A DNA stretch of 32,000 nucleotides from Afipia carboxidovorans OM5 (GCF_000218565.1 NC_015684.1:1998829-2030828); one strand, 5' to 3'. Counted from the stretch's first letter, positions 12,143 to 29,456 are shown. The notes: a model not told the origin generated them from the sequence alone. A program made the numbers and translations.

Positions 12143-12161
12143 TGGCGGAAGGGGTGTCCGC
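12143..12161. repeat. 19-bp direct repeat TGGCGGAAGGGGTGTCCGC, copy 1 (putative att site of the island)
   Basis: Identical 19-mer at 29438-29456. Each copy lies about 100-140 bp upstream of a homologous P4-type integrase gene. It contains the hairpin GCGGA-AGGGGTG-TCCGC. Confidence 0.7.
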
Positions 12162-12225
12162 TGGAAACCCAACCTTAGTGGTTTTATCGTCCGATTGCCT
12201 TGTAAAAAAGCACTAAAGTCAGTAA

Positions 12226-12254
12226 TGCCGGTATGGTGGTTATGACAACCGGCA
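12226..12254. promoter_or_regulatory. Inverted repeat TGCCGGT-N15-ACCGGCA immediately upstream of int
   Basis: 7-bp perfect arms ending 7 bp before the int ATG. An analogous 8-bp-arm inverted repeat precedes the second int gene. Confidence 0.4.
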
Positions 12255-12260
12255 GAGAAA

Positions 12261-13433
12261 ATGGCCCGTAACAAGCTGAGCGAAACGAAGATCAAGGCGA
12301 TTTCCAAGCCGGGAATATACGGCGACGGTGACGGCCTATTCATTCGAGTCCAAAAGACCGGCAGCCGCAACTGGCTGTTCGTGTATCGCCGCGGTCAACA
12401 GCGTAATGAGATCGGGCTTGGTGGATATGGACAAGGCACCGCACCGGTTTCGCTGCCGCTGGCCCGAGAGAAGGCCGACGCAATCCGGCAGCAACTCGCC
12501 CGAGGTGAGGATCCCCGCGCATCGCGAAACGCGATCAAACCGAAGACGTTTGGCGAGGTGATGGAGCAACTGCTCACGGCCAAGGAATCCGAGTGGACCA
12601 ACCCCAAGCACGCTGAGCAATGGAAGATGACGCTGCGGACGTACGCCAAGCCGCTGCACCGTCTGCCGGTGGCTGATATCGTGATGGGCGACGTTAAAGA
12701 CTGTATCCTGCCACACTGGGCCGAACGGCCCGAGACGGCGGCACGTCTGCGGTCCCGCATTCAAGCGGTGATCGACTACGCAATCGCCCATGAGTGGCGC
12801 TCGGCTGGGAATCCGGCCCGGTGGGGAGGTTTGCTTGAGAAGGTAATGCCCAAGCGCCAAAAGTTATCGCGCGGCCACCATGCCGCGCTGGCCTATGCGG
12901 ACGCGCCCCAGACGATCGAGGCGCTGCGGCATTCTTCGGGTACGGCGGCGCGAGCGGTGGAGTTTATAGCGCTGACGGTGGCTCGGTCGGGCGAGGCCCG
13001 GTACTCGACCTTCGCAGAGGTGGACGTGAAGGCCAAAACATGGACCGTCCCCGCCGAGAGGATGAAGGCGGGTAAGGAGCATATCGTCCCGCTCACAGCC
13101 CGCGCGCTCCAGATCGTCGAGGCCATGAGGCAACGGGCAACCGGCGATTATATCTTCGGCGGTGCACAAGACAGTAAGCCGATCAGCGATACCGCAATGG
13201 TGAAGGCGCTACGGTTGGCATCGCCAGATAAGGCCGCGACTCTCCACGGGCTACGATCGACGTTTCGGGACTGGGCCGGCGACAAGACGAAATTTCCACG
13301 CGACATAGCGGAAATGGCATTGGCGCATGCGGTCGGGGACGAAACCGAGCGCGCCTATCGGCGAAGCACCGCTCTCGCCCAGCGTAGGAAACTGATGGAT
13401 GCGTGGGAAAGGTATCTAAATACCGACAAATAA
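12261..13433 (+). CDS. int: Tyrosine recombinase/integrase, P4/CP4-57 type with N-terminal Arm (DUF4102-like) domain
   Basis: N-terminus MARNKLSETKIKA...GDGDGLFIRV...WLFVYR. Catalytic-region motifs TVARSGEAR, HGLRSTFRDWAG and ERAYRR. Confidence 0.95.
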   Translation: MARNKLSETKIKAISKPGIYGDGDGLFIRVQKTGSRNWLFVYRRGQQRNEIGLGGYGQGTAPVSLPLAREKADAIRQQLARGEDPRASRNAIKPKTFGEVMEQLLTAKESEWTNPKHAEQWKMTLRTYAKPLHRLPVADIVMGDVKDCILPHWAERPETAARLRSRIQAVIDYAIAHEWRSAGNPARWGGLLEKVMPKRQKLSRGHHAALAYADAPQTIEALRHSSGTAARAVEFIALTVARSGEARYSTFAEVDVKAKTWTVPAERMKAGKEHIVPLTARALQIVEAMRQRATGDYIFGGAQDSKPISDTAMVKALRLASPDKAATLHGLRSTFRDWAGDKTKFPRDIAEMALAHAVGDETERAYRRSTALAQRRKLMDAWERYLNTDK

Positions 13434-13447
13434 ATGTGGACTAGATG

Positions 13448-13476
13448 TTGACATTTATGACATTCGAGCGCTATAT
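13448..13476 (+). promoter_or_regulatory. Sigma70-like promoter TTGACA-N17-CTATAT upstream of alpA
   Basis: Near-consensus -35 with a 17-bp spacer. The same architecture (TTGACC-N17-CTATAT) occurs at the equivalent position in the second island. Confidence 0.5.
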
Positions 13477-13578
13477 GTAGGGTATGCATCGGCAATGCCG
13501 ACGCTGTCAGCGTGATTGGCCCTTTTTCCTCGCCGAGCGCTTACGCGGTCGCACCGCAACCCTGACAAGGGTTCCTGA

Positions 13579-13821
13579 ATGTCCCCCCAGCATATTCCTG
13601 TTGCCCAGCCGCGGCTGGTTTCCATCAAGACTGTCTGCGCCATGACGAGTATGTCTCGTTCAATGGTGAATGCCTTGCGCGATGACGGCGTGTTCGTTGA
13701 AGCCGTTGAGCTTGGACCTCGGAGAATCGCGTTTGTCCGAGAGGAAGTCGAAGCGTGGATTGACGCGCGTATCGCGAAACGCGGTGCGAACGATAACAAC
13801 CGTAAGCGGGAGGCTGCATGA
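13579..13821 (+). CDS. alpA: AlpA-family phage regulatory protein / excisionase-like HTH
   Basis: LVSIKTVCAMTSMSRSMVNALRDDGVFVEAVELGPRRIAFVREEVEAWI is a typical AlpA/MerR-superfamily HTH. It lies directly downstream of int. Confidence 0.85.
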   Translation: MSPQHIPVAQPRLVSIKTVCAMTSMSRSMVNALRDDGVFVEAVELGPRRIAFVREEVEAWIDARIAKRGANDNNRKREAA

Positions 13822-14021
13822 TCGAGGTCGGCAAATATAAGAACTCCAAGACGCGCGAGATCGTCGAGGACGCCATCAGCCAACTATGCGCCGTTGGTTT
13901 CGACTCCGATGGCGCTGCATCGCTCTTGGTTATCCAAGGCATGATTCGTATTGAAGACCCGCAAAAGCGGAAGGAAATGGCCGCCTTCGTTACGCGCGAA
14001 GCGGAAGACGATACCGACTGA
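13818..14021 (+). CDS. Hypothetical protein (67 aa)
   Basis: ATGA start/stop overlap with alpA, with GGGAGG 5 nt upstream. Confidence 0.55.
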   Translation: MIEVGKYKNSKTREIVEDAISQLCAVGFDSDGAASLLVIQGMIRIEDPQKRKEMAAFVTREAEDDTD

Positions 14022-14110
14022 TGCATCATCGCCTTGGCTTTGGCCGGGGCGAACTACTGCATGACTGGCCCTCTGCCGGGTGCGCCGAAAAACTCCCCTT
14101 AGAGACCATT

Positions 14111-14335
14111 ATGAGAATTTTGAATTACCGACCGGCACCATCCGGTGGCGGCACAATCGGCTTTGCTGAAATCGAAGCCGCTCCTGGCATCCGCATGTTC
14201 GACGTCAAGATCGTTCGGACACATGACGGCAGCATCCGCGCCTATGCGCGAAACACCGCGTTCGATCGTACCGCGATCGCGGAAATTCAGAAGTCCCTTA
14301 CCGGAGGCGCATGCCTTGAACGCATTGCAAGCTAA
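14111..14335 (+). CDS. Conserved small island protein (74 aa), paralog of 31336..31590
   Basis: MRILNYRPAPSGG... compares with MRILAIRPAPPGS... in the second island. The 3' end overlaps the start of the replication gene in both islands. Confidence 0.6.
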   Translation: MRILNYRPAPSGGGTIGFAEIEAAPGIRMFDVKIVRTHDGSIRAYARNTAFDRTAIAEIQKSLTGGACLERIAS

Positions 14336-16088
14336 ATCTTTCGATCCGGCCGACCTCACTCGATCCGACAAGGTCGACCAGATGGGGGCTATACTCGACG
14401 GCGACATCTATGTGCCGCTCGATCCTGATCTGGATATCGCTAGCCTCACGATGGAAACCATCGGCGAGGCTCTGCGACGTGAACGTGAATCCGACGATAT
14501 TTCGAACGGCGTCGTCTACACTGACGATTGGAAATACAAGGACCGGCGCGTCGGCAATCACAACAACGTCTTCCTGTCATATCTGTCTGAGGACGGCGAA
14601 ACGGTCGTGCATCGCCAACTGCAGGGTGATCCTTCCGACGCTGTATTCATCATCGAGGATCTGCAGCGTGCCGCCGGCGGCGGCGAGGTTCGGTATCGGC
14701 CCGAACCGAAGGCGGTCAATGAACCGGTTGCAGCCAATGACAACGAGCCTTCCGCAGCATCAACACTCGCCAGCACCAAGCCGAAACTGACGGCAGACGA
14801 GGAACGCGAGTATCTCGAAAAATTCCAGCGTGAGCAGCTTTTACCCGGCCAGCGCGGCGAACTTGTCTTTGATGACATCGCGCACCGGGCGCTTTCAACT
14901 GGACCGTTCTGGCGAATCGCGGGCGCGGTGGTTGAAGAAGTTTCCGGCGACGTGTTCATGGGCGTACTAGATGGCGCTCCGAAGTTCGCCCCGGAGGGTG
15001 GCGGCATAATGCCGATAAACCCTCTCGCGCCTTTCCCGTTAGTCGACCCATCAGAGTGGCATGGCACCGTCGCAAAGGGTCGCGAGTGGTTTCTGACCGG
15101 CCTCATTCCGCATCGGCAAGTAACGCTGCTGTCCGGTGACGGTGGTGTAGGCAAATCACTTTTGGGTTTGCAGATTGGCGCGGCGTCTGCTCTGGCGATT
15201 GAGACTCTAGGCTTGCGACCCCGGCCAGGGCGAGTGCTTTACGTCGGCGCCGAAGACGAGGCTGAAGAATTTCACCGTCGTCTGGATGATATCGCCACAG
15301 CACACAGCGCAAAAATGTCCGAGTTGACGGACCTTCGCATTCTTCCGCTGGCTGATATGGACGCACTCCTTTCCGAGCCAGATTCTAAGGGCAACATGAA
15401 AGCGACCTCGCTATGGAGCCGTGTTGACACATTTGTGCAGGATTGGAAGCCCGGCCTTGTCGTTCTCGACACTGCCGCTGACTTGTTTGGTGGTGACGAA
15501 GTAAAGCGAGCGCAAGTCCGCCATTTCGTTGCGATGCTTCGCAAGTTGGCTATTGGCCGCAACTGTGCGGTTCTGTTGCTGGCGCATCCGTCCGTGGCCG
15601 GCATGGCGTCCGGCAGCGGCTACAGCGGCTCGACCGCTTGGAATAACAGTGTCCGTTCGCGCCTCTATCTTACCAGCGGTGAAGGTGACATTCGCGTTTT
15701 GAAAACCGTGAAGAGCAACTACGGCAAAATCGGTGATGAGACGTATCTTGAATGGCAGGACGGCTCGTTCGTTCTGCACGACCCGAGCAAACCGGGGGTT
15801 GCTGACGGATTGATAAACGGTCGCAACGACAAGGTGTTTCTTGCCGTTCTGTCGAAGCTGAACCGGACGGGCCAGCGGCCAAGCCCGAACAAGTCGCCAT
15901 CGTTTGCACCGCGTATGATTCAGAAGCACCCCGACGCAAAGGGTGTGAAGGTCCGCGACATGGAGCTGGCGATGCAGCGGTTGCTGGACTCCGGCGTCAT
16001 CAAGATTGTGCAGGAGGGACCGGCCTCGCGTCGGTTCAGCCGTTTGATTGTTTCGGCGGAAGACTTTGGAGGTGCCGACGACGGCTGA
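14316..16088 (+). CDS. RecA-fold replication ATPase (AAA_25 / RepA-like helicase family) with unknown N-terminal domain
   Basis: Walker A SGDGGVGKS, Walker B LVVLDTAADLFGGDE, and LLLAHPSVAG...GSTAWNNSVRSR, typical of RepA-like helicases. TTG at 14316 lies 8 nt after GGAGG; ATG at 14382 is an alternative start. Confidence 0.78.
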   Translation: MNALQAKSFDPADLTRSDKVDQMGAILDGDIYVPLDPDLDIASLTMETIGEALRRERESDDISNGVVYTDDWKYKDRRVGNHNNVFLSYLSEDGETVVHRQLQGDPSDAVFIIEDLQRAAGGGEVRYRPEPKAVNEPVAANDNEPSAASTLASTKPKLTADEEREYLEKFQREQLLPGQRGELVFDDIAHRALSTGPFWRIAGAVVEEVSGDVFMGVLDGAPKFAPEGGGIMPINPLAPFPLVDPSEWHGTVAKGREWFLTGLIPHRQVTLLSGDGGVGKSLLGLQIGAASALAIETLGLRPRPGRVLYVGAEDEAEEFHRRLDDIATAHSAKMSELTDLRILPLADMDALLSEPDSKGNMKATSLWSRVDTFVQDWKPGLVVLDTAADLFGGDEVKRAQVRHFVAMLRKLAIGRNCAVLLLAHPSVAGMASGSGYSGSTAWNNSVRSRLYLTSGEGDIRVLKTVKSNYGKIGDETYLEWQDGSFVLHDPSKPGVADGLINGRNDKVFLAVLSKLNRTGQRPSPNKSPSFAPRMIQKHPDAKGVKVRDMELAMQRLLDSGVIKIVQEGPASRRFSRLIVSAEDFGGADDG

Positions 16089-16223
16089 TTCCAACCCACC
16101 TTCCAACGCCTTCCAACGGTTTTGTAAGTCGTTGAAATCATTGATGTTCGCACACCAATTACGGTAACTTCCAACGGTGGACTAACTCATTGATTTTATT
16201 CGCTTCCAACGCCTTCCAACGGG
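16088..16223. repeat. Iteron cluster: five CTTCCAACG copies, two of them as TTCCAACGCCTTCCAACGG doublets (putative satellite origin of replication)
   Basis: Copies at 16100-16108, 16110-16118, 16168-16176, 16203-16211 and 16213-16221. The 19-bp doublet repeats at 16101-16119 and 16204-16222. TCATTGAT occurs twice. The cluster is non-coding and lies directly after the replication ATPase gene. Confidence 0.6.
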
Positions 16224-16320: not shown

Positions 16321-16989
16321 ATGAATCACGCCAACGACAACCAGCCGCGCAGTCCGGAAGAGCACCGCAAGCTGGTAGCGGAGCAGGCCACCGCTGGCGA
16401 ACGCGCTTATCAGGGTGGCTCATGGCCGCAGGGACGACGGCTCCATAAGGCCGGCAAACTCGAGCTCGTGACCGGCCTCGTTGGTTGGCAGGTCCGAAAC
16501 ACGATGCCGCGCCTAAGTGCAGCAAACGACAATAGAACGGTGGACTTCGACCATACGGAAACCGTTGAGCGTGATGTTCTGGATGCCGACACTATCGTGG
16601 CGGCGGTTGAGGCTGAGAAGAGAGAGCCCGGCAATCATTACCGGGAAGAGACGCAGGAGGTGTATGTCGTCACCTCTCGCGACGATGACGGTAAGCCCGT
16701 AAAAGGCGAGTGGCGCGCCATCGCGGGCGAGACTGTCTTTGACCGACAGCATTCCTCTGCGGCACCCGATTGGGCGGTTGATGATATGGGCGAAGAGGAA
16801 AAAATAGCTAACGCCATCGACACCAAGCGTATCCGCGCACGGCTCGGACCCGCCGTCTGCACGCTGCTTGATATGGCTGCCGGCGACTCGACGACAGGCG
16901 AAATTGCCGACGCCATCGGCGTTAGTCGCGCCAAGGCCGAAAGCTACGTCGAGATGGCGGTTCAGAAATATTTGCAGATTGCCGCCTGA
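16321..16989 (+). CDS. Hypothetical protein with C-terminal sigma-70-region-4/LuxR-like HTH
   Basis: The C-terminal segment STTGEIADAIGVSRAKAESYVEMAVQKYL looks like an HTH. The mid region is acidic. Confidence 0.65.
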   Translation: MNHANDNQPRSPEEHRKLVAEQATAGERAYQGGSWPQGRRLHKAGKLELVTGLVGWQVRNTMPRLSAANDNRTVDFDHTETVERDVLDADTIVAAVEAEKREPGNHYREETQEVYVVTSRDDDGKPVKGEWRAIAGETVFDRQHSSAAPDWAVDDMGEEEKIANAIDTKRIRARLGPAVCTLLDMAAGDSTTGEIADAIGVSRAKAESYVEMAVQKYLQIAA

Positions 16990-17121: not shown

Positions 17122-18099
17122 TTGGGGCGCCCACCTTTTCATGTTCGCAGAACGGTCCCATTGCCAGGTCCAGTCCCGAAGGCTGATAAATGCTTTGCCG
17201 CCATTAAGGCGGCTATCGCGTCCGGCATGTCAGATCGTCAGGCGACACTTACGGTGCCCGGTGCACCCTCCGATGCGGCGTGGTCCCGGTATCTGCAAAA
17301 CCGTCCAGAGCGCGCGGCAGAGATTGCTGCGGTTCGGCACGCCAAGGGCAGGCCAAGTCTCGACCGCATCGCGGCGAACTTCGATGCATTGATTAAGTTG
17401 ATTGCGGAAGGTCACAGTGCAGTCACCGCCGGCAAAGAGTTGGGCATCAATGGCGACCGTCTAACCGAATGGCTTCTCGCGAACCCCAATAAGCGCCCGG
17501 CTTACGTCGCTGCCATGGTGAAGCGCGCCAAGGTGCTTGGTATTCGAAGCACGACGATCAAGGTAAAGCCGAGGCGCAAGGATTTCACCGAGGCTGAGTT
17601 TGACAAGGCAATTGCACTAATTGCACGATCGACCGCCCCAGACCTTGCCACTGCGCTGCGCCGCGCGGATTTGCCGAGGAATGGCTCGCTACAACGACGC
17701 GCGAGGAATGATCCGAAATTTCGAGCACGCCTCGACCGCGCGTATAGTTCGCACAGTGCGAGTACCCATTATCTCCGCTACATTAAAGACCCGACCGAAC
17801 CTCGTATGTTGCTCGCGTCGCTGCTGGCCGATAAGAATTTCGCCGCTGGCTTCAATCGCTTTAAGTCGCAACGATATGATCGCCACGACCTTGCGCAAGA
17901 GTTCGTCTTAGCTGTGCTAGAAGGCCGGCTAACGAAAGCGGACCTGAAGAACAAAAAGGCCAACAACGATATCCGCAAGCGCGCTTTGGGAAACAGCCTT
18001 GCGATCACCTCGCTAGATGCGCCGTCGCACGGTGATGGCGAGTCCAGATATTGCGTAGGCGACACGATCGCCTCTCCCTGCCAAATCCAACACTATTAG
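17122..18099 (+). CDS. Hypothetical protein with multiple HTH-like segments (start uncertain)
   Basis: 325-aa ORF with coding-like composition. Helix-rich segments such as FDALIKLIAEGHSAVTAGKELGINGDRLTEWL. TTG at 17122 has a poorly spaced RBS; ATG at 17227 is an alternative start. Confidence 0.55.
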   Translation: MGRPPFHVRRTVPLPGPVPKADKCFAAIKAAIASGMSDRQATLTVPGAPSDAAWSRYLQNRPERAAEIAAVRHAKGRPSLDRIAANFDALIKLIAEGHSAVTAGKELGINGDRLTEWLLANPNKRPAYVAAMVKRAKVLGIRSTTIKVKPRRKDFTEAEFDKAIALIARSTAPDLATALRRADLPRNGSLQRRARNDPKFRARLDRAYSSHSASTHYLRYIKDPTEPRMLLASLLADKNFAAGFNRFKSQRYDRHDLAQEFVLAVLEGRLTKADLKNKKANNDIRKRALGNSLAITSLDAPSHGDGESRYCVGDTIASPCQIQHY

Positions 18100-18105: not shown

Positions 18106-18342
18106 ATGACAATTCGCGTGAACGCGCCAGCGGCCTATCGCGGCCGGCTGGTGAAGGTCGCATCCATTAACGGTAGCGACGCCGAGATTGTCTGGATCGG
18201 CCACGACGGAGATATCAATTTGCGATCTGTCCACACTGACGACCTCGTTGATTTTCAAGAGGCAACGTCGTTGCAATCTTCTTGGAGCGCTGCTGGCGCC
18301 ATTGAACACGAGTCGACTATTCGCAGTTGGAGGGCCGCCTAG
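18106..18342 (+). CDS. Hypothetical protein (78 aa)
   Basis: Its stop overlaps the portal start (TAGTG). Confidence 0.5.
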   Translation: MTIRVNAPAAYRGRLVKVASINGSDAEIVWIGHDGDINLRSVHTDDLVDFQEATSLQSSWSAAGAIEHESTIRSWRAA

Positions 18343-19562
18343 TGGGTTGGTTCTCGCGTAAATCGGCTCCGGTGGCGGAGACCAAATCCGAACTGACCGA
18401 TTGCGATTCAACCTCATGGGCAGCGCTCATGGGGTTGTTTTCGTCTTCTGCTAGTGGCGTGACCATTACGGCGGAAACTGCAGCGCACTTTTCCCCGGTG
18501 AATGCTGCCTATTCGCTTATCAGTGAAACCACTCGCATGCTGCCTTGTAAACTTAACAAGGTAGTCGGTGAAGGCAAGCAGCCAGACGACTCGCACCCAG
18601 CCTACGCGCTCGTGCACGACATGGCGAACGATTGGCAATCTGCGGGCCAGGTTCGGCAGCAAATCACGATCGATGCCGTTTTGCACGGTGATGGTTTTGG
18701 TTTCGTTGGCAAGGCCAACGGCAAGCCTACCGAGATACTTCATATTCCCCGACATTCGATGGTTGTTGAGTTCGATAACATCAACAGGCCGTCGTACCGT
18801 ATCGGGACGCAGAACTACACGACCGACGAAATCATTCATCTGCAATCGCCGTCGCTTGACGGAAAACGCGGACTCGGTTTGTTGCAGGCCGGACGCGATG
18901 CAATCGGCTTAGGCATCTTGCTTGAACGTACTGCCGCTCGCCTTTTCAAAAACAATTCCAGGCCCGGTGGTATTCTTTCTTTCAAGGGAACACTAAATGC
19001 AACTGCTGCCGGACGCGTAGCGCAATCGTGGAAATCAGCGCACGGCGGCGACAGTAGCGGTGGCGTTGCGGTTGTCGATAACGAGGCGGAATATACTCCG
19101 ATTGCGTTTACGTCGGTTGAGGCACAACACCAAGAGCAACGCAATTTCGCAATCAATGAGATTGCGCGGCTGACGCGCGTACCGGCAACCATGTTGTCGG
19201 ACTTGTCGCGGGCTACGTGGTCGAACACGGAACAACTCAATCTGCAATTCTTGCAGACTTGCATGCTGCCATGGTTGCGCGGCTGGACGGACGCTTATGC
19301 GCGGACCCTTCTGACGAAGGAAGAACGTTCGCAATATAGCTTTGAATTCATCGTCGATGATTTGCTCCGCGCCGATACCGCGGTGCGCGCTACGGCTTAC
19401 AGCCAATTCCGCAGCATGGGTGTCATGACTGCGAACGACGTTCGCAAACGGGAAAATCTGCCACCGCTCGCTGGCGGTGATGAATTGCAAAACCCGTTTA
19501 CGACATCCGGCAAGCAACCGGCGAACGACAACATTCAACCTCCGAAGGAATCCGCGGCTTGA
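18342..19562 (+). CDS. Phage portal protein, HK97 family
   Basis: Portal-like core (RPGGILSFKG...VAVVDNEAEYTPI...EQRNFAINEIARLTRVP). GTG at 18342 lies 7 nt after GGAGGG. Followed by protease and capsid genes. Confidence 0.9.
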   Translation: MGWFSRKSAPVAETKSELTDCDSTSWAALMGLFSSSASGVTITAETAAHFSPVNAAYSLISETTRMLPCKLNKVVGEGKQPDDSHPAYALVHDMANDWQSAGQVRQQITIDAVLHGDGFGFVGKANGKPTEILHIPRHSMVVEFDNINRPSYRIGTQNYTTDEIIHLQSPSLDGKRGLGLLQAGRDAIGLGILLERTAARLFKNNSRPGGILSFKGTLNATAAGRVAQSWKSAHGGDSSGGVAVVDNEAEYTPIAFTSVEAQHQEQRNFAINEIARLTRVPATMLSDLSRATWSNTEQLNLQFLQTCMLPWLRGWTDAYARTLLTKEERSQYSFEFIVDDLLRADTAVRATAYSQFRSMGVMTANDVRKRENLPPLAGGDELQNPFTTSGKQPANDNIQPPKESAA

Positions 19563-21918: not shown

Positions 21919-22286
21919 TGCCTTACGCAGCGCCACGCCTTTGCTCATGTGGTCGCGTGGTGGCAGCCGGCAAGCGGTGCCAATGTGCACAACTGAGGAA
22001 GGCCAATGCTGACAAGCTCAGGCCAACAGCACCACAGCGTGGATACGATGCAGCATGGAGAGAGTTACGTGATGCGTGGTTGGCTGAGCATCCAAGCTGT
22101 GTTGGTTGCGGTGACGATGCAACACTGGTGGATCACATTGAGTCCATTCGTCGCGCTCCGCACCGCAGGCTGGACGTAACCAACCTTCAGAGCATGTGCG
22201 CCGTATGCCATGGCCGCAAGACAGCGCGCTTTGATGGCAGCTTCGGTAGAGCCATTAGCAAGGCCACTGATAAGCCCTCTGATTGA
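21918..22286 (+). CDS. Phage-associated HNH endonuclease
   Basis: Cys-rich zinc-finger segments (CSCGRVV...CQC, CVGCG) and VDHI...NLQSMCAVCHGRKT, the H-N-H core. Confidence 0.85.
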   Translation: MPYAAPRLCSCGRVVAAGKRCQCAQLRKANADKLRPTAPQRGYDAAWRELRDAWLAEHPSCVGCGDDATLVDHIESIRRAPHRRLDVTNLQSMCAVCHGRKTARFDGSFGRAISKATDKPSD

Positions 22287-22457
22287 TGGCAGCGCGTTGC
22301 ATCCACGAAATACTAACGCACCACGCGCCGCGACGTTCGCAGCATCATGCCGCCGGGGCGTGGGTCTCGTTTTGCCATCGACCGGCTAGTACCGACGTCC
22401 CAGCATCGCTCGCGAAAACGTTGAATTGGGCCAGTCCCTAAAATGGACTTTTAAACA

Positions 22458-22757
22458 ATGAGTTACGCAACACTTGAAGAATTCAAAGCCCATGCACGCA
22501 TCGGGTTTGATGACGATGATGACCTTATTGAAGGGTATCTCGACTCCGCAACGGACTTCATTCGTCCGTTCCTTGTCGACGATCCCGAAGGTGATAGTCC
22601 GCCCTCCGAACCATCGCGCGACCTGAAACAGGCGACCTTGCTAATTGCGTCGTCTTGGTATGAGCGCCGGGAAACCTCGATTGACGTAACTCTGCGCGAG
22701 ATTCCGTATGGTGCGCGGGACATCATCAACCAGATTCGCAGTTGGAATTTCGGATGA
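22458..22757 (+). CDS. Head-tail connector protein (gp6-like)
   Basis: LEEFKAHARIGFDDDDDLIEGYLDSATDFI is the typical N-terminus of gp6-like connector proteins. Confidence 0.78.
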   Translation: MSYATLEEFKAHARIGFDDDDDLIEGYLDSATDFIRPFLVDDPEGDSPPSEPSRDLKQATLLIASSWYERRETSIDVTLREIPYGARDIINQIRSWNFG

Positions 22758-23161
22758 GTCATCATACGCGAGGGCGCAAGGCCGAACCACAGCCCATCTC
22801 GGACGCCATCCGCACTGTACCGCAACCGCCTAAAGCAATGTCTACCGACGCCAAGATTGAATGGCGGCGCGTTCTGCCGGTGCTTGTTGAGCGGCGTGTC
22901 TTGTCTCCGGCCGATATGCACGCCGTTGAGCGCTTCTGCGAGGCCGCGTCCGACATCAAGGATGCGCGTGCTGCCATCGCGAAGGATGGCGCCTATGTCG
23001 AAAACCGGCTGGGCGAAATCAAACGTCATCCTGCTTTCGCAACGTTGCGCGAGGCCACCGCGGAGTCCCGCCGTTGGTCCGCTGAATTAGGATTGACGCC
23101 AGCCAGTCGCAGCCGTGCCGGAACGCATGACGATGACGAAGACAATGCGATGGATTTGTAA
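22754..23161 (+). CDS. terS: Terminase small subunit, P27 family
   Basis: KIEWRRVLPVLVERRVLSPADMHAVERFCEA...ELGLTPASRSR is a P27-type TerS signature. ATGA overlap with the upstream gene. Confidence 0.8.
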   Translation: MSHHTRGRKAEPQPISDAIRTVPQPPKAMSTDAKIEWRRVLPVLVERRVLSPADMHAVERFCEAASDIKDARAAIAKDGAYVENRLGEIKRHPAFATLREATAESRRWSAELGLTPASRSRAGTHDDDEDNAMDL

Positions 23162-23496
23162 TGACCACAGCCGGCGACTTACGCGAGAACGTTGAACTGC
23201 TAAAACAGGTTTCCGTCAGTGACGGTGCCGGCGGTTCAACGACGGAATGGGTTGCACAGTTCCAGGCGCGTGCCGCCATCAAGGTTTTGAAGGCTGGCGA
23301 AACCGTCTTGGCTGGCCGCTTGCAGGGCACGCAGACCCTTGTGATTACCGTGCGCTGGCAATCTGCGCTCGCTGAAGTAGAGGGCACATGGCGCTTGCGG
23401 AATGTCCGCACCGATAGCGAGTACAACATTCGCGCCGTTACGCCGGACACGCGCAAGGCATTTGCCGATATCCTATGTGAGACTGACGAGCTTTAA
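23161..23496 (+). CDS. Phage head closure / head-tail adaptor protein (Phage_H_T_join-like)
   Basis: GDLRENVELLKQ...DGAGGSTTEWV...ARAAIKVLKAGE...ITVRW...YNIRAV pattern. TAATG overlaps at both ends. Confidence 0.75.
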   Translation: MTTAGDLRENVELLKQVSVSDGAGGSTTEWVAQFQARAAIKVLKAGETVLAGRLQGTQTLVITVRWQSALAEVEGTWRLRNVRTDSEYNIRAVTPDTRKAFADILCETDEL

Positions 23497-25100
23497 TGCG
23501 TCCCGCCTGGCTCTTTGATGACAGCGAAATAGCAGACCCGCTTGGCTACGGCCAACGTGCGGTGGATTTTCTGCGCGCACTTAAGCATCCGAAGTCGCGG
23601 CTTGCAGGCCGAGCGTTCCAACTCGACCCATGGGTTGAGCGGCTGGTGCGGCGCATTTATGGCCCGCGCGATGCTGATGGCCAACGTCAGGTCCGAACCG
23701 TTTTCGCCATGGTGCCACGCGGCGCGCGCAAAACCTCGATCGGTGCTGCGCTCGTTTGTCTGCATACCTTCGGCGCGGAACGCGTACCGAACGGCCAGAC
23801 CGTATCCGCAGCAGCCGACGCCAAACAGGCTCGCATTGCGTATGACGAAGCGACCGGCATCATTCACGCCGACCCGATCATTGCAAAAAAGCTAAAGCTC
23901 CGGCCCGGCACCTACAAGATTCAACACGTCCGCAAGGGCGCGACATACGAGGCCATCTCCAGCGACGGCGCGACACAACACGGCAGGACGGTAAACTTCC
24001 TGTTGTCGGATGAAATCCATGCGTGGAAGAAACGCGACCTATGGGAGGCGCTGCGAACCTCTCTGGCAAAGACCTCAGAGTCATTGCACGTCATCACGAC
24101 CACGGCGGGCCGCGGCCAAGAGAATCTGGCGTTCGATATTTACGAATACGCCAAACGTGTTGCGTCTGGCGAGATAGAGGATCCGACATTCCTCCCGGTG
24201 TTGTTCGAACCGGATAAGGGCGCGGATTGGAAAGATGAGGCGGTCTGGCACGAAGTCAATCCCGGTCTGGCGCTTGGCTATCCTGACATCAAGGGCTTGC
24301 GTGCGATGGCGCGTGAGGCTGAGAGCCGCCCCTCAGATCAAGACGCCTTCAAACAGTATCATTTGAACTTCTGGCCGGACCACTCGTCGAGTCCGTTTGT
24401 CGACATGGCGACCTATGATGAAGGCGCCGAACCGATCGATCTAACCGCCCTTGAAGGTGGGGAATGCTGGCTGGCGGCGGACTTGTCGAGCAGTACCGAC
24501 TTGACGGTTATCATTGCGGCGTTCCGTGAGGGCGACGGCTACGTTGCCGTGCCGTGGTTTTTTTGTCCGCGCGACAATCTGCGGCAGCGACAGGAATCAA
24601 CCGGCGCACCTTACATCCGTTGGGCTGAGGAAGGCTTGATTACTGCCACACCCGGCAACGTGATCGACTTTCGCACCGTCGAAAACAAGGTTCGCGAACT
24701 CTGCGAAACCTACAGCGTCCAGGAAATCGCTTTCGATCCCGCGATGGCGCGCAACATCATGAACAACCTGCTTGAGGATGGCTACCCAGCGATCGAACAC
24801 CGGCAAGGTAGCCTATCGATGATGCCCGCCATTGCAGAACTTGAGCGGGCGATCGTTGCGAAACGCTTCCGGCATGGAGGCCATCCGGTGTTGAGATTCT
24901 GTTTTGCCAACGTCCAGGCTGAAACCAATCCGGCTGGGCATATCGTTCGCTTCACCAAGCAAAAGAAATGGCTTTCCATCGATGGCGCACAAGCGTCGGC
25001 CATGGCGGTCAACCGGGCGTCGTCTGGCGGCAGCGCTTCGGTGACATCGCTTTACGACGATCCTGAGTGGGAGAAGGCGTTGGAGGGACTTAACTCTTGA
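23496..25100 (+). CDS. terL: Terminase large subunit
   Basis: 534 aa. N-terminal FQLDPWVERLVRRIYG. ATPase region (VPRGARKTS, LLSDEIH) and a C-terminal nuclease-like region, typical of Terminase_1-type TerL. Confidence 0.9.
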   Translation: MRPAWLFDDSEIADPLGYGQRAVDFLRALKHPKSRLAGRAFQLDPWVERLVRRIYGPRDADGQRQVRTVFAMVPRGARKTSIGAALVCLHTFGAERVPNGQTVSAAADAKQARIAYDEATGIIHADPIIAKKLKLRPGTYKIQHVRKGATYEAISSDGATQHGRTVNFLLSDEIHAWKKRDLWEALRTSLAKTSESLHVITTTAGRGQENLAFDIYEYAKRVASGEIEDPTFLPVLFEPDKGADWKDEAVWHEVNPGLALGYPDIKGLRAMAREAESRPSDQDAFKQYHLNFWPDHSSSPFVDMATYDEGAEPIDLTALEGGECWLAADLSSSTDLTVIIAAFREGDGYVAVPWFFCPRDNLRQRQESTGAPYIRWAEEGLITATPGNVIDFRTVENKVRELCETYSVQEIAFDPAMARNIMNNLLEDGYPAIEHRQGSLSMMPAIAELERAIVAKRFRHGGHPVLRFCFANVQAETNPAGHIVRFTKQKKWLSIDGAQASAMAVNRASSGGSASVTSLYDDPEWEKALEGLNS

Positions 25101-25157
25101 TCAGCCTAAATGCCGAGGTTTGACGATAGAGCGTCTGGACGTATGATGCGTTATTGA

Positions 25158-25706
25158 ATGAGGGCGCGCATGCAGATTGAATTGACACAGAAAGAGCAGG
25201 AATGGCTATCTAACCTTGAGCTAGACCAGTCGAAGGTAACGGACCACGACGATTGGAAGCGGAATAGTGAGATCGCCGCTGCATTGACAAAATCACTTCT
25301 GGATAGAAAAGCGGTTCCAGCGCAGAGACTCAAATATTTTCTCGATCCCAACTATAGAACAGGAAGAATGAAAGGGTCGCGGTTCGATATCTTTAAACGT
25401 AACGGTCGTGATTTCGAAGAAACGATACGCCACAACAATTTTTTAAAGCACCTGCGCTACTTCCTGTTCGGCGCGAATCTTCCAGAACCGATCGTCTCTT
25501 CGTTTAGCCAAGCGATCAAAGACTGTGGGGAATATGTCTCTTCCGGCGATGCTTACGACTTATCACGGAAAGCGCGCACGCTGTATCGGCAATCGGGTTT
25601 GGAGCGCGAATTCGCCGCTGACGAATTCTTTAAGCTCTCGATCGATCTCGGTGTCTCAGCATCGGAAGCCATGTCAATACGCAAGGCCGTTATAGACGCT
25701 CGATAG
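25158..25706 (+). CDS. Hypothetical protein (182 aa), AT-rich cargo gene
   Basis: First gene after terL. Visibly lower GC. No family recognised. ATG at 25170 is an alternative start. Confidence 0.55.
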   Translation: MRARMQIELTQKEQEWLSNLELDQSKVTDHDDWKRNSEIAAALTKSLLDRKAVPAQRLKYFLDPNYRTGRMKGSRFDIFKRNGRDFEETIRHNNFLKHLRYFLFGANLPEPIVSSFSQAIKDCGEYVSSGDAYDLSRKARTLYRQSGLEREFAADEFFKLSIDLGVSASEAMSIRKAVIDAR

Positions 25707-25718: not shown

Positions 25719-26621
25719 TCAAATTGCTGGCCAGTGTTTTGTGCTGAGGTACCGTTCGTGAGCGTCGATCAGTTCGACTACTCGACTTCGGAGGTCATCC
25801 AATAGCGGGGTAAAATGGTCGCTTAATTCGTCTTCACCGATAAACTGAAAGTAAATTTTAAGCGTCTCGTTGATGACTAGCGCCAACGTGGTGACCATCT
25901 GCGGTCTCGGAGTGCGCCAGTTCAGTTTAGGTTCGAAGTTAGCTTCGCCATCCCACTCAACGTGGTTCGCATAGATTTCCTGCCAATTCCCGTGGATGCT
26001 ATGAGAGCCGCCGCCGAATGCTGCCAGATACAATTCTTCGAGATCAACATCCCGCGCTTTGTCAAAAGTGTTTTTCCCGCCCCATGGCCGTTTGTCTTTC
26101 AAGTCGATCTCGTCTAGCGCAATCCGAGCGCTTTTGGCGGCACGCTCGATAGACTGAAGCATTCGGTCTTCGATCGGAAGGACAACTCCGTTGCGTGCGT
26201 GAATGGCTTTGCGGATTTTGTCTCTCAGCTTCCGCTCATGTCGCAGGGAATATGCAACGTAAGAATCAATCAATGACTTGGAAAAATTCTTTATTAGAAA
26301 TCGAATATTGACAGTTGTCTCGAAAACAAGCCTCGCCAGTATCATGCTGGTTTCGTCTCGACGTTGGCAAACCTGATCGAGAAAGGAGTCGAGTAGCTTA
26401 TATTGGCGGACCATGTTGCCACCAACCGCTGCCTTGTCTCGATCCCATGTCGGTTCGGCCCCCATGGTTCCTGCAGCAACGCAACAATAGCTTGCGGTTT
26501 CAACCATCAGGGAGACGGCAAGCGAGGTAAATTCGGATTCAGACTTGAAGGATAGGACAGTTTCCTGGCGCACTTCGACGCGCTCAATTTTGGGGACAGA
26601 GTGTCCGAGCATACAAATCAA
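25719..26621 (-). CDS. Hypothetical 300-aa all-alpha protein, partner of the upstream nuclease-like gene (possibly DUF5677-like; unverified)
   Basis: TTG at 26621 overlaps the upstream stop (TTGA); ATG at 26612 is an alternative start. Helix-rich sequence with the GGGSHSIHGNWQEI motif. AT-rich. Confidence 0.65.
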   Translation of the reverse strand: MICMLGHSVPKIERVEVRQETVLSFKSESEFTSLAVSLMVETASYCCVAAGTMGAEPTWDRDKAAVGGNMVRQYKLLDSFLDQVCQRRDETSMILARLVFETTVNIRFLIKNFSKSLIDSYVAYSLRHERKLRDKIRKAIHARNGVVLPIEDRMLQSIERAAKSARIALDEIDLKDKRPWGGKNTFDKARDVDLEELYLAAFGGGSHSIHGNWQEIYANHVEWDGEANFEPKLNWRTPRPQMVTTLALVINETLKIYFQFIGEDELSDHFTPLLDDLRSRVVELIDAHERYLSTKHWPAI

Positions 26622-28090
26622 GCCTTAGAGCCCGATGGTTTGTTGTCGTCGCGCGCATCGATAAGCACGATATCCTTACTGTCTGTCAGTTTAAGTTTCT
26701 TCAAAATTGCATTGACCTTACGAAGTTCAGCAATACTGAAATAGATAATCACCTTAATCGCGTTTTTCGCATCGCTCGCGGCTTGGTAAATCGGTACTTG
26801 CTTCTCAAGGTTTCGTTCTAGCTGTGTATTCTTTGCCAGCTTCATTTCGACAAGTGTTTTGTCGTCGGCACCTCGTGAGATTTTGAAGTCAACTGGCCCT
26901 CTGCCATCGTTCGCCTCGGTGCCAACATCTGAAGGCGTCCCGAACCAGACTAGGCGATAAAGGATTTGAAGGTCCTTTTCCCGCTGAATTGGTTTTCCGT
27001 CGTGATAAAATAGCCGGTGTCCGCCCTTGCTCTCGATGGCATCCTTCAGATAGCGGACACGGGCATGCGCCTCTTCATAGGTGCCGCCGCCGGTTCCGTA
27101 GAAGGCGGTCTTATGAAGCAGGGTGTTTTGAATTTCGGCGATCTGCCGGATGAATATGTATTCGGTTGCAAGTACCTTCTCGGCGCTGAGGTCTGCAGCT
27201 TCGTCTCCGCGCTGTTCCTTCAACTTGATGTAGTAATCGATGAGCTGCGGGAATTCTAACAAAGTTCTTCTGGCAGCTTCCGAACGCTCTTTCGCGCTGG
27301 GACGGCGTCGACGACCGGGTCTATCAAGGATCTTGTGGAAATAATTCTCAACCTGCGCCCGTAGCTGTGAATCTGGAATGGCTGTCGGAATTTCCTGAAA
27401 GTCGCCAACCAAATCGCCTTTGTTGATCCAGTTTTCATCTCTGGTCAGGATATCCTTCGGAGTCAGGATGACGAAATCACCATTAACCCACGGCAGTGCA
27501 TATGTGGTTCGCTCCCATGTCTCGGTCTCGTAATTGAATCGAGTCTTCTCTACAGCCACCTGCCGCACGTCGTTAGGCTTCAGGTGCTGCGCAGCGAACT
27601 TTTCAGTATATCGACACAGATAATCCTTAATTAGATTAGTCGTGAAATCGCTGATGTTGTCGCGTCCGACACCATCGGAGATCAAGCACACCTTTTCCAA
27701 GTGGCTTCCCTCGGTGATTCCTTCCTCGCCGAAGTCTGAGAACAAGCTGTGCAGATTACTGTGTAAGGCCCGAGCGAAATCCATCCCGAGTCCGGTCCCG
27801 CCGTTGCCGCTAATCGAGAAACCGAGCCAGTTCTGCTTCACCTCACTGAAGCAGTACCAGCTCGATAGCAGCGCATCGCTGATCGCCCCCTTCGCAGATC
27901 GATCGCGGAGGAATACTAGGTAATCGATCATCGAGTCGTGAAGGGTGCGGTACTCATCCTTCTCGCTGTTAAACAGCAGGAAGGGATCGATAAATAAGGG
28001 AAGGTCATTAACGATCGAAATGTTCAGGGCACCGCAACTATCTAGCGTTCCCGCATCGATTCCGAAATACTCATTAAAAAAGGTGGCCAC
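26618..28090 (-). CDS. Hypothetical 490-aa protein: unknown N-terminal domain plus C-terminal RecB/PD-(D/E)xK-like nuclease motifs
   Basis: GTG start 7 nt after GAGG. The C-terminus carries E371, D401 (GPVDF), E415-x-K417 (VEMK) and Q431-x3-Y435 (QVPIY) in the order and spacing of RecB-family nucleases. AT-rich. Confidence 0.72.
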   Translation of the reverse strand: MATFFNEYFGIDAGTLDSCGALNISIVNDLPLFIDPFLLFNSEKDEYRTLHDSMIDYLVFLRDRSAKGAISDALLSSWYCFSEVKQNWLGFSISGNGGTGLGMDFARALHSNLHSLFSDFGEEGITEGSHLEKVCLISDGVGRDNISDFTTNLIKDYLCRYTEKFAAQHLKPNDVRQVAVEKTRFNYETETWERTTYALPWVNGDFVILTPKDILTRDENWINKGDLVGDFQEIPTAIPDSQLRAQVENYFHKILDRPGRRRRPSAKERSEAARRTLLEFPQLIDYYIKLKEQRGDEAADLSAEKVLATEYIFIRQIAEIQNTLLHKTAFYGTGGGTYEEAHARVRYLKDAIESKGGHRLFYHDGKPIQREKDLQILYRLVWFGTPSDVGTEANDGRGPVDFKISRGADDKTLVEMKLAKNTQLERNLEKQVPIYQAASDAKNAIKVIIYFSIAELRKVNAILKKLKLTDSKDIVLIDARDDNKPSGSKA

Positions 28091-28229
28091 GGAAACGCCT
28101 CTCGTTCAAACGCAATCAATCCGTCCGACACGCGGCGAGGGCCGCAGAAATAGCAGCAACAAACTTGATTTTCACGATGGTTTTCTCCCAGCCTGCATAG
28201 CCTACCTCAGGTTGAAGGGAGACTGGAAA

Positions 28230-28322
28230 CTAACCTTTTGGCAAGAGGCCGATTTCCACAAGCCTGCGGATGGACTCTGACCGTGATGGTTTGTCGGGCT
28301 GAAGCGCAGCCCATTCGTCTAG
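28230..28322 (-). pseudogene. 3' remnant of a second RHH-family gene (no start codon, about 30 codons)
   Basis: Translates to LDEWAALQPDKPSRSESIRRLVEIGLLPKG*. It aligns with the C-terminus of the intact RHH protein (VDSWIAKHDDAPTRPEAIRTLLRKGL, about 12 of 26 identical by eye). The frame is closed by TAA at 28344-28346. Confidence 0.45.
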
Positions 28323-28329
28323 GCGCGCC

Positions 28330-28824
28330 TCAGGCTTTGGGTTTTATCGGCCCGATCCGTTTTCTGTACGGCCGGTTTTTGAAACTCGTTTGCACCAATG
28401 CGTAATAATCGCCATTCCGTAAATTCGGCAGAATATCCGGCCTCGATCGGATAACGCCAGTCCATTGGTGCGCCGGCTCTAGAAGCTGCGGAATGTTGCG
28501 CGGATAGCCCTTCAGTTGAGGGTTAGTCACCACATAACTGCTGATCGCTCTTCGCCTCCAGAAATAATAGAAGGGGTAACGCTCTTCGATGGCGAGGTTG
28601 GTAATCATGGTGGCTGACGTGCCAACGTTTGTAGCGTTCACGATGACAAGGTCGCGCTCGTCAAACTCCGGATCACCGCCGACTACTAGGCCATCCGATA
28701 TGACGGACATTCGCAAGCGCGGTCCACTCGTCAGCCAGTTTCGGAATTGAATCAGTAATGCGCCGGTTGAAACGCAGGCCGCATAGATTGCGATCCAAAT
28801 GCCTATGGTGCCGGGTTCTGTCAC
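28330..28824 (-). CDS. Hypothetical N-terminally membrane-anchored protein (164 aa)
   Basis: GTG at 28824 overlaps the RHH stop (GTGA). One TM helix (IGIWIAIYAACVSTGALLIQF), then a beta-rich domain. The longer 191-aa ORF would overlap the RHH gene by 85 nt. Confidence 0.6.
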   Translation of the reverse strand: MTEPGTIGIWIAIYAACVSTGALLIQFRNWLTSGPRLRMSVISDGLVVGGDPEFDERDLVIVNATNVGTSATMITNLAIEERYPFYYFWRRRAISSYVVTNPQLKGYPRNIPQLLEPAHQWTGVIRSRPDILPNLRNGDYYALVQTSFKNRPYRKRIGPIKPKA

Positions 28825-29015
28825 TTGCCCTTGGCTAGCCCTTTGCGCAGCAGCGTGCGGATGGCCTCCGGCCTTGTCGGCGCGTCGTCGTGTTTTGCAA
28901 TCCACGAGTCAACCGCTTCCAGATCGTCAGGCTGAAGCCGAACGCCTACGAGCGTACCCTTGCCGGTGGCGGGAGGCCCGCGCCTTTTCTGTGTTATCAC
29001 GGTTTGACGTTTCAT
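28821..29015 (-). CDS. Ribbon-helix-helix (Arc/MetJ/CopG-type) DNA-binding protein
   Basis: GPPATGKGTLVGVRLQPDDLEAVDSWIA...RPEAIRTLLRKGL shows a beta-strand followed by two helices. ATG at 29015 is preferred; the ORF is open to 29078. Confidence 0.68.
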   Translation of the reverse strand: MKRQTVITQKRRGPPATGKGTLVGVRLQPDDLEAVDSWIAKHDDAPTRPEAIRTLLRKGLAKGK

Positions 29016-29038
29016 TGAAATCTGTGTTATCACGGTTT
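28988..29038. repeat. Two perfect 18-bp direct repeats TCTGTGTTATCACGGTTT spaced 33 bp apart, flanking the RHH start codon (putative operator)
   Basis: Copies at 28988-29005 and 29021-29038. Each contains the near-palindrome GTGTTATCAC. Confidence 0.6.
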
Positions 29039-29080
29039 TCGGCTGGCGAATAGTCCCAGCCGGAAATGGGGATTGCATTT

Positions 29081-29326
29081 ATGTCAGAAACTAACACCGA
29101 AACCAAAACACCGTTTGTCCGTGAGAAAATCCGGCAGGTTGTCGTGGAGCATGAAATCGTGAAGCTGAACGAGCTTCTAAAACTGCAGCAGACCCTCTTG
29201 AGCGATGGCCGAATTGAAGGGATGGGCGAACGCAATGCTCAGTCGGAAATATTGCAGGAGAGCATCTTACACCGCGCGAACGAACTGCTGGTCTTGGTCC
29301 AGGACAGTGACATCGTTAAGCACTGA
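29081..29326 (+). CDS. Hypothetical small helical protein (81 aa), divergent from the RHH gene
   Basis: ATG at 29081 lies 8 nt after GGGGA; 29066 is an alternative start. Heptad-like sequence (VKLNELLKLQQTLL). Followed by a terminator. Confidence 0.5.
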   Translation: MSETNTETKTPFVREKIRQVVVEHEIVKLNELLKLQQTLLSDGRIEGMGERNAQSEILQESILHRANELLVLVQDSDIVKH

Positions 29327-29340
29327 AGCCGCGAAGATGG

Positions 29341-29370
29341 CCCGTGCTTTAACCGGCGCGGGTCTTTTCC
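29341..29370 (+). terminator. Rho-independent terminator
   Basis: CCCGTGC-N8-GCGCGGG stem (6 of 7 pairs) followed by TCTTTTCC. Confidence 0.55.
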
Positions 29371-29437
29371 ACCGTTATGCGATTGGTTATGTTAGACCGA
29401 CAAAAACGGCACTTTATTCAATGATTTCAATGGCTGA

Positions 29438-29456
29438 TGGCGGAAGGGGTGTCCGC
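29438..29456. repeat. 19-bp direct repeat TGGCGGAAGGGGTGTCCGC, copy 2 (junction between the two tandem islands)
   Basis: Identical to 12143-12161. It lies 139 bp upstream of the second integrase gene. Confidence 0.7.

Follow-up and report, generated by a model that had tools for sequence, protein, structure and literature searches.

Capsid-forming satellites have been characterized experimentally only in Enterobacteriaceae and are catalogued mostly in Gammaproteobacteria and Firmicutes. Those known as phage-inducible chromosomal islands that form capsids (cf-PICIs) are delimited by criteria that include a size of about 10–18 kb (He et al.; de Sousa et al.). The proteobacterial cf-PICIs are described as a single lineage, whose packaging-module proteins are 50–90% similar to those of EcCIEDL933, and cf-PICIs altogether are already regarded as polyphyletic. 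Here, a stretch of 32,000 nucleotides from the soil bacterium Afipia (formerly Oligotropha) carboxidovorans OM5 (NC_015684.1:1998829-2030828), called the window below and used for all OM5 positions, is considered. Between positions 12143 and 29456 it contains an element with its own integrase, replication, head, and packaging genes. It is probable that this element, integrated in the OM5 chromosome (CP001196), is a functional capsid-forming satellite of the cf-PICI type that depends on the tails of a helper phage. As cf-PICIs are polyphyletic, it can be assigned to this known kind, of which it is probably a further lineage. The literature searched, which excluded the supplementary tables of the SatelliteFinder paper, contained no account of cf-PICIs in Alphaproteobacteria.

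The comparison with cf-PICIs of Enterobacteriaceae and Pasteurellaceae (EcCIEDL933, 15.4 kb; KpCIDSM30104; EcCIGN02175) is based on their published descriptions. With a unit of 17,295 bp, the OM5 element falls within their 10–18 kb size class and shares with them the lack of tail and lysis genes and the arrangement of an int-alpA-rep/ori front end, in which rep and the iterons are a putative replication module. It has a tyrosine integrase together with a specific att site (19-bp repeats and a precise empty site), an AlpA regulator directly downstream of int, and its own portal, S78-type protease, HK97 capsid, adaptor, connector (head closure), HNH endonuclease, small terminase (TerS), and large terminase (TerL). 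None of the “forbidden” components, namely holin, lysis genes, or a complete tail, was found in the element using PHROGs, Pfam, and tblastn. Further similarities are the position of the head genes before HNH-TerS-TerL, the low similarity to phages, and the accessory genes after the packaging module. The cf-PICI interpretation proposed in the preliminary description of this DNA agrees, at the level of genes, with the operational criteria that He et al. and de Sousa et al. have published. There are also differences: the OM5 host belongs to Alphaproteobacteria (Nitrobacteraceae), unlike those of the enterobacterial cf-PICIs, an additional jellyroll decoration protein is encoded, and in relatives of the element the integrase is distal to the tRNA-type target. 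Classical PICIs (EcCICFT073 type) share the integrase, AlpA, a replication module with an iteron origin (putative in OM5), a specific att site, and a TerS-like/HTH (helix-turn-helix) packaging protein, but they depend on the capsids and terminase of the helper, whereas the OM5 element encodes its own. In the PICI model of SatelliteFinder, portal, connector, and adaptor are “forbidden,” and the OM5 element falls outside this model because all three are present.

In the left part of the element, int and alpA are followed by small genes, the AAA_25 Rep, five iterons, and two HTH proteins, an order confirmed with Pfam for the integrase, AlpA, and Rep (at or above the curated cut-offs), by counting repeats for the iterons, and by reading HTH-like segments from the sequence. 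The tyrosine integrase of 390 amino acids (aa) is encoded on the plus strand, as are all the genes up to TerL, at 12261–13433 (Arm-DNA-bind_3, Phage_int_M, and Phage_integrase) and matches ACI93288.1 exactly. It is followed by the AlpA-family regulator of 80 aa (13579–13821; Phage_AlpA, E 5e-10) and by two small genes of 67 and 104 aa (13818–14335), called as genes in the OM5 record and without a Pfam or PHROG match; the 67-aa protein is 74–75% identical in Hoeflea L017 and in L054 and L075. The replication protein, 590 aa according to the OM5 gene call (14316–16088), contains a RepA/DnaB-like ATPase domain (AAA_25, E 1e-29), to which its PHROG primase and helicase matches are confined. Directly after rep, a putative origin (16100–16221) is formed by five CTTCCAACG iterons flanking A+T-rich stretches; these five copies lie within 122 bp, compared to 0.28 expected across the whole window. 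The first of the two HTH proteins is a putative regulator of 222 aa (16321–16989), with a C-terminal HTH-like segment read from the sequence and no family match, and it is kept at the same position in L001, L048, and L214. The second, of 290 aa (17227–18099), has TerS-like HTH motifs (phrog_1482 and a weak, sub-cut-off match to Sf6_terminase); this putative regulator or DNA-binding protein shows 63–83% identity in L046, L047, L048, and L214.

The head and packaging genes, assigned with Pfam and NCBIfam, also follow the order claimed for them. Downstream of a 74-aa gene (18118–18342; no family match, 41–70% identity in relatives), there are genes for the portal (18342–19562; Phage_portal, PF04860, E 7e-84, full length), the prohead serine protease S78 (19559–20092; Peptidase_S78, PF04586, E 9e-34), the HK97-fold major capsid protein (20100–21248; Phage_capsid, PF05065, E 4e-87), an accessory protein of 128 aa (21306–21692), and an HNH endonuclease as packaging accessory (21918–22286; HNH, PF01844, E 3e-7). 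Next come the gp6-like head-tail adaptor (22458–22757; Phage_connect_1, PF05135, E 8e-24), the P27-family TerS (22754–23161; Terminase_4, PF05119, E 6e-28), the head closure/completion protein, a connector (23161–23496; Phage_HCP, PF05521, E 2e-20; NCBIfam equivalog gp16_SPP1, TIGR01563, above cut-off), and TerL (23496–25100; TerL_ATPase and TerL_nuclease, PF03354 and PF20441), after which the cargo begins. The 128-aa protein (phrog_5707) was modeled by AlphaFold2 as a beta-jellyroll (pLDDT 88). Foldseek matched the model, at a TM of about 0.5, to capsid-structure chains of 129–140 residues from Carin1 (8cjz_A), BPP-1 (3j4u_H), and Agrobacterium 7-7-1 (9hz8), and also to unrelated jellyroll proteins. 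In relatives, its gene is always located immediately 3′ of the capsid gene. The protein is a probable head decoration (cement) protein and not a tail tube, as far as the fold model indicates. HNH-dependent terminases cut at a cos site adjoining HNH and TerS, and for this reason the 171-bp non-coding gap between the HNH and adaptor genes (22287–22457) is a candidate cos region.

The absence of tail and lysis genes, stated in the preliminary description, agrees with the profile searches. No tail or lysis family was detected among the genes without assigned function by PHROGs or Pfam, nor, by PHROGs, among all 97 six-frame open reading frames (ORFs) that have 50 aa or more and do not belong to the 11 core genes. 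The six PHROG families matched by these 97 ORFs are accounted for by the 490-aa cargo protein (two families), the 128-aa protein (one), the TerS-like HTH protein, the small repressor at 28821–29015, and one family of unknown function. A tblastn search with the tape-measure, terminator, neck, fiber, and associated proteins of relatives gave nothing in the window (best E 0.09). There are also no tail-like genes beyond either boundary, where the PDC-S06/AAA_13 gene and host genes are located on the left and an int-alpA island on the right, and hence a false boundary hiding tail genes was not seen on either flank. It could be considered that the element is a complete tiny temperate phage with tail and lysis proteins too divergent to be recognized, given that no function is assigned to about 2,100 of its residues and that very small siphoviruses exist. 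Such a phage is extremely improbable here. The proteins without assignment are the two HTH proteins upstream of the portal, the jellyroll protein, the small genes adjoining alpA, and the minus-strand cargo of lower G+C content, one gene of which has thousands of stand-alone chromosomal homologues; only the 490-aa cargo protein is long enough for a tape measure, and the number of ORFs matching a PHROG tail or lysis family is 0 of 97.

Another possibility is that a complete temperate siphovirus of the HK97 type has decayed to this remnant: its tail and lysis genes would have been deleted, with cargo taking their place, and its head genes would be in the course of being lost. The state of the genes argues against it. 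None of the 11 core genes is truncated, their domains are covered end to end, and dN/dS values range from 0.02 to 0.13. The reference for these values was L046, a 17.6-kb provirus of IMG genome 637000192 (apparently Nitrobacter hamburgensis X14) and the closest relative compared at the DNA level. The ratio is 0.02 for the protease, 0.045 for the capsid, 0.08 for the decoration protein, 0.09 for TerL, 0.12 for rep, and 0.13 for the 290-aa HTH protein. From these comparisons, the genes of the element are judged to be intact and under strong purifying selection; the frameshifted structural genes expected of a decayed prophage were not seen. No tail-gene trace was left in the tblastn search described above. 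As neither a tail or lysis module nor its remnants were found, and nothing tail-like flanks the element, it does not correspond to the definition of a complete or defective HK97-like prophage.

The gene order is also unlike that of real phages. HK97-like siphoviruses with HNH-dependent cos packaging (e.g., RHph_X2_25 and phiP27) have the same head and packaging protein families, but they are 40–70 kb in size, with the canonical order and full tail and lysis modules, and their identity to the OM5 element is at most 40%. Among 50,697 phage records, the closest capsid, from Rhizobium phage RHph_X2_25, is 39.8% identical and the closest TerL is 33.9% identical. In RHph_X2_25 the order is canonical, HNH-TerS-TerL-portal-protease-capsid-connectors-tail, compared to portal-protease-capsid-decoration-HNH-...-TerS-TerL in the OM5 element and 90-odd relatives. 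At the DNA level, no match to phages was found, and a search of E. coli genomes with the portal-through-HNH segment gave no match either. Two small phage/GTA-like (gene transfer agent-like) records with related capsids were considered as satellites and rejected, being partial genomes that have the canonical gene order and include tail genes.

Both boundaries of the element are intact. The two claimed repeat copies were found as exact copies of the 19-bp core TGGCGGAAGGGGTGTCCGC, at 12143–12161 (attL) and 29438–29456 (attR), the latter doubling as the left core of a neighboring island, and the unit between the cores is 17,295 bp. A third copy with up to three mismatches was not found in the window (chance expectation 0). 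The empty att site, the search for which was proposed as a check, exists in public assemblies with 100% identical flanks. Contig L259 (17.1 kb, two samples) is 100% identical to window positions 3869–12161 and continues at 29438–32000 through a single core, and contig L260 (nine samples) has the same empty junction, so that the element-free junction occurs in 11 public sequencing samples. The intergenic spacing at the empty site is 271 bp (114 + 19 + 138 bp), as predicted for the precise loss or absence of the 17,295-bp unit. A precise empty junction with one core in identical flanks shows the unit to be a discrete insertion at a specific site, which some backgrounds have and others, otherwise identical, lack. 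Such a precise empty site in a 100% identical background is a further argument against a decayed prophage.

The OM5 element is not isolated. More than 1,100 capsid homologues were found, and the named ones among the best 120 are all alphaproteobacterial. A scan of one genome per species gave 42 loci in about 40 alphaproteobacterial species, with genera including Nitrobacter, Mesorhizobium, Aminobacter, Rhizobium, Allorhizobium, Hoeflea, Stappia, Paracoccus, Novosphingobium, and Geminicoccus; Sinorhizobium and Sphingomonadales are also named in the range of the family. The permuted order of head and packaging genes is common to nearly all relatives. In IMG/VR, 127 matches were obtained, and many of the best 80 are on contigs of 14–18 kb. 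No terminal repeats were found on the IMG/VR contigs, so circular or packaged genomes could not be demonstrated in this way. The proposed check for the same element at other loci gave relatives of similar size in other genera, bounded by a 46-bp repeat at tRNA-Met (16.6 kb), a 45-bp repeat at tRNA-Val (16.7 kb), and an 18-bp repeat at tRNA-Asn (17.07 kb); in all three, the integrase is at the end distal to the tRNA gene. The suggestion that an alphaproteobacterial example would be noteworthy was correct as to the host class, but the example is one member of a large family, which is previously undescribed in Alphaproteobacteria. In the closest relatives, the head-closure gene changes its place: it precedes TerS, follows TerL, or lies between the two, which indicates that connector genes are shuffled as modules. 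This recalls the adaptor/connector variability of enterobacterial cf-PICIs, in which it sets tail specificity. Three related elements are apparently present in Nitrobacter hamburgensis X14 (L045, L046, and L050; P0122, P0133, and P0242), two with capsids 97% identical to that of OM5 and the third 76%.

Several observations weigh against the assignment to functional cf-PICIs. A circular attP junction was absent from the contigs of public runs carrying the element, which contain attL and attR contexts only. Neither ARAGORN nor Rfam detected a tRNA or tmRNA target in the window. The Rep of the OM5 element is an AAA_25 ATPase in which no primase domain was detected, unlike Pri-Rep of classical PICIs and unlike the cf-PICIs described. 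In the order HNH-adaptor-TerS-closure-TerL, the connector genes stand among those for the terminase instead of before HNH, unlike in E. coli cf-PICIs, and this is the sole difference from the proteobacterial cf-PICI order of morphogenesis genes followed by hnh-terS-terL. The last group of observations comes from a survey of the related loci in which TerL is followed by 2.5 kb or more of sequence, 71 in all. In 40 of them, an ORF homologous to tape-measure proteins follows TerL, four have a tail-fiber-like gene (PHROG), two a large ORF without a family match, and the remaining 25, as the OM5 element, have none of these. Of ten such ORFs tested for tape-measure domains, four match Pfam TMP_3 (E 1e-51 to 1e-54) and three more match PhageMin_Tail weakly, and in several relatives the tape-measure proteins are fused to lysozyme or VanY (peptidase) domains. 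Examples of large genes after TerL are found in L128 (15736–20293), L007 (15540–18497), L019 (15458–18355), and L129 (8843–10603). Neck1 is likewise present at many of the tape-measure loci, and a tail-terminator gene at a few. A tail-free member of the family could therefore have lost such genes.

These data are an argument for a decayed prophage, since tape-measure-like genes, often with Neck1 or terminator genes, belong to the repertoire of the family, and the minus-strand cargo of the OM5 element fills exactly the corresponding position after TerL. The missing circular form in public reads points in the same direction. However, the relatives with tape-measure genes are just 16.7–18 kb in size (16.7 kb for the sole one whose two ends are visible), and the members examined gave no tube, baseplate, or lysis genes, so that no “complete” parent of the lineage was found. 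Taking into account also the intact genes and boundaries, decay from a complete phage is very unlikely. Tape-measure genes in relatives that are devoid of a full tail or lysis genes suggest instead, from their sequences, that the family seems to carry a variable tail-interface module. A tentative extension of this reading is that some members use only the adaptor and head-closure proteins as an interchangeable module, and others add Neck1, a tail terminator, a tape measure fused to lysozyme or peptidase, or a fiber. It is likewise conceivable, with the balance leaning against it, that the family is a separate alphaproteobacterial satellite lineage, in which such a module would re-specify the length, entry machinery, or host range of the tails used, possibly including those of gene transfer agents (GTAs).

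GTAs have to be considered for another reason. Those of the Rhodobacter capsulatus type (RcGTAs) likewise occur in Alphaproteobacteria, possess head genes of the HK97 type, and can accommodate little DNA. RcGTA has no integrase, AlpA, or replication module, occupies a fixed, vertically inherited locus, possesses its own tails, and packages host DNA. The OM5 element, in contrast, has int, alpA, rep, and a putative origin, lacks tail genes, and is polymorphic for presence and absence, and the att sites of its relatives differ; it does not correspond to the definition of RcGTA. A related proposal is that the element is self-sufficient or at least independent of phages, producing tail-less capsids or vesicle-like particles, or using the tails of a resident GTA. 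Its adaptor and head-closure families occur in GTA-like clusters as well, the capsid of a GTA-like record is 36% identical to that of the OM5 element, and tail-less capsids are released by cf-PICIs (He et al.). Roseomonas and Paracoccus also have circular replicons, about 17 kb in size, in which this tail-less layout is combined with a replication initiator of the plasmid type; one of them carries a “gene transfer agent family protein.” On the other hand, the conservation of an adaptor and a head-closure protein under selection speaks for docking to a tail, a lysis gene that could serve for release is missing, and tail-less capsids are not infective in the characterized systems. Independence from phages is thus considered unlikely. 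The two replicons are deposited as plasmids, Roseomonas mucosa pTT14-8 (L272, CP099479.1; 16,883 bp) and Paracoccus marcusii unnamed5 (L273, NZ_CP157016.1; 17,494 bp). They contain portal, protease/capsid, HNH or connectors, TerL, and replication genes, without tail or lysis genes; TerS is annotated in the Paracoccus record alone. Their capsids are 40–43% identical to the OM5 capsid, and they may be episomal or excised capsid-forming satellites.

For the preferred reading, a satellite that borrows the tails of a helper phage, a mechanism can be proposed on the model of EcCIEDL933 and KpCIDSM30104; helper dependence, induction, tail borrowing, and small capsids are features that we infer by analogy with these systems. 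It is proposed that a helper phage or an SOS signal would turn on alpA and the downstream operon, the integrase would excise the element at the 19-bp core, and Rep would fire the iteron origin. Small proheads would assemble from the element’s own capsid, protease, portal, and decoration proteins. HNH-TerS-TerL would then cut an element-specific cos, probably within 22287–22457, and package the DNA of the element only. The adaptor and head-closure proteins would complete a neck able to accept preformed siphovirus-type tails of a co-resident or co-infecting phage, and particles would be released by the lysis functions of that phage. The cargo of the right end (DUF5677, DUF8370/8371, two proteins without assignment, and the small repressor) would be carried along.

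The 19-bp core is not restricted to OM5. The exact 19-mer was found in at least 120 metagenome contigs (L131–L250) with unrelated flanks, and also in IMG/VR contigs (L251–L257). In 27 of the at least 120 contigs, an integrase homologue starts about 140–230 bp from the 19-mer, a geometry like that of OM5. The flank on the integrase side has TTGTGGG-like repeats, and the opposite flank varies. Unrelated flanks together with nearby integrases indicate that many different islands use the 19-mer as an att core. Two of the contigs (L214 and L241) carry the same kind of capsid module, and no conserved gene was found beside the 19-mer in the metagenome contigs examined. In L241 (the same contig as L256), a 524-aa ORF of a large serine recombinase (1567–3141; Resolvase and Zn_ribbon_recom) spans the 19-mer and stops 40 bp beyond it, followed by AlpA, an AAA_25 protein, and the head module, with no tyrosine integrase; this is either a swapped recombinase or the end of an adjoining element. 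The reverse complement of TGGCGGAAGGGGTGTCCGC ends in CCA and is readable as the 3′ end of an acceptor and T-stem, and its last nine bases equal the 3′ end of E. coli tRNA-Sec. A tRNA-Sec-like 3′ end as the att target nevertheless found no support, as no intact tRNA was seen beside the 19-mer in the at least 120 metagenome contigs. A core pattern extended by the T-loop gave 0 matches in IMG/VR, and neither a third core nor a tRNA was found within 11 kb to the right in OM5. By analogy with the three tRNA-bounded relatives, the core may derive from a tRNA.

Between int and alpA (13434–13578, plus strand), the preliminary description placed a strong promoter. The boxes of a sigma-70-like promoter are readable by eye, with TTGACA at 13448–13453 and TATATG at 13472–13477 separated by an 18-nt spacer, but the consensus scanner did not list this site. 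An 8-bp inverted repeat (13430–13437/13451–13458) overlaps the −35 box. The int-alpA RNA motif (Rfam RF02996) was not detected between the two genes at E-values up to 1; a match to it just above the gathering threshold lies beside the integrase of metagenome contig L135 (1036–1105), which holds the 19-mer. The best promoter-like site of the element according to the scanner is at 25120–25147, just upstream of the first cargo gene (25170–25706, plus; 178 aa, no family match), a homologue of which, 48% identical, is located upstream of the head module in Mesorhizobium (L025).

The following cargo genes are on the minus strand and have a lower G+C content. They encode a DUF5677 protein (25719–26612; E 2e-27, no PADLOC or PHROG match), a DUF8370/DUF8371 protein of 490 aa (26618–28090; phrog_30194), and a protein of 191 aa (28330–28905) without a match in Pfam, PHROGs, PADLOC, or NCBIfam. 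The “defence-like” label given to the cargo is weak and comes down to one gene: the 490-aa protein resembles the unvalidated PADLOC candidate PDC-M36A with E 4e-21, over residues 6–231, i.e., in its N-terminal half only. More than 6,600 homologues of this protein exist, solitary in varied contexts, and DUF5677 is not their fixed neighbor in other genomes. No match to the 490-aa protein was found in solved structures, and its AlphaFold2 model is of low confidence (pLDDT 62), the fold search with it being empty. At the attR end, a small repressor-like gene of 64 aa (28821–29015, minus; phrog_4738 “transcriptional repressor,” E 4e-8) and an 81-aa gene, the last before attR (29081–29326, plus; no family match, called in OM5 and in Logan contigs), are divergently oriented. 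Between them, the 18-bp sequence TCTGTGTTATCACGGTTT occurs twice as an exact direct repeat, the copies being 33 bp apart (starting at 28988 and 29021, within 28988–29038; repeat family D19); these are possible operators. Speculatively, the repressor-like gene and the repeats may form an additional small switch, which in the circular form would sit just upstream of int.

To the right of attR, a second island lies in tandem, using the same 19-bp core (window 29457–32000, continuing in L258 10001–21218). It encodes an integrase, int2, 47% identical to that of the first element, AlpA, a Toprim primase, an AAA_25 protein, three proteins without assignment, a major head protein of 371 aa (phrog_10, E 3e-65), and four more proteins. 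Searches of this island detected neither a portal nor a protease or terminase, and over the more than 11 kb to which it extends no third core or tRNA was found; it is an island distinct from the first, with a capsid gene. In metagenome contig L214, a full portal-protease-capsid-HNH module is linked to an integrase resembling int2 (84% identical). To the left of attL and outside the element, a gene on the minus strand (9704–12028) encodes an AAA_13 ATPase. The entire protein matches PDC-S06, a single-gene defence candidate of PADLOC (E 9e-136), and PrrC, LmuB, and AbiL-type ATPases are matched more weakly. The G+C content of this stretch (about 9600–12100) is about 0.50, compared to 0.60–0.65 in host genes, and the gene is also present in the element-free contig.

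In the genome paper of OM5, two “prophages” were predicted by Prophinder and nothing more was said of them. Together with the cataloguing of the matching IMG/VR contigs as viral, this suggests that prophage counts in these bacteria are probably inflated and that satellites have been overlooked. The OM5 element provides a clean, intact case in a culturable chemolithoautotroph, for which the precise empty site is already in public data. The partial tail genes of its relatives, if confirmed, would extend the contribution that satellites are known to make to the chimeric particle. If satellites do re-specify the tails they steal, OM5, with its element-plus and element-minus backgrounds and the tandem island with a capsid gene, would be a tractable model for it. 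The kind of element is known, but its host class, the plus/minus backgrounds, and the relatives bearing tail genes make the OM5 element a useful entry point to this family.

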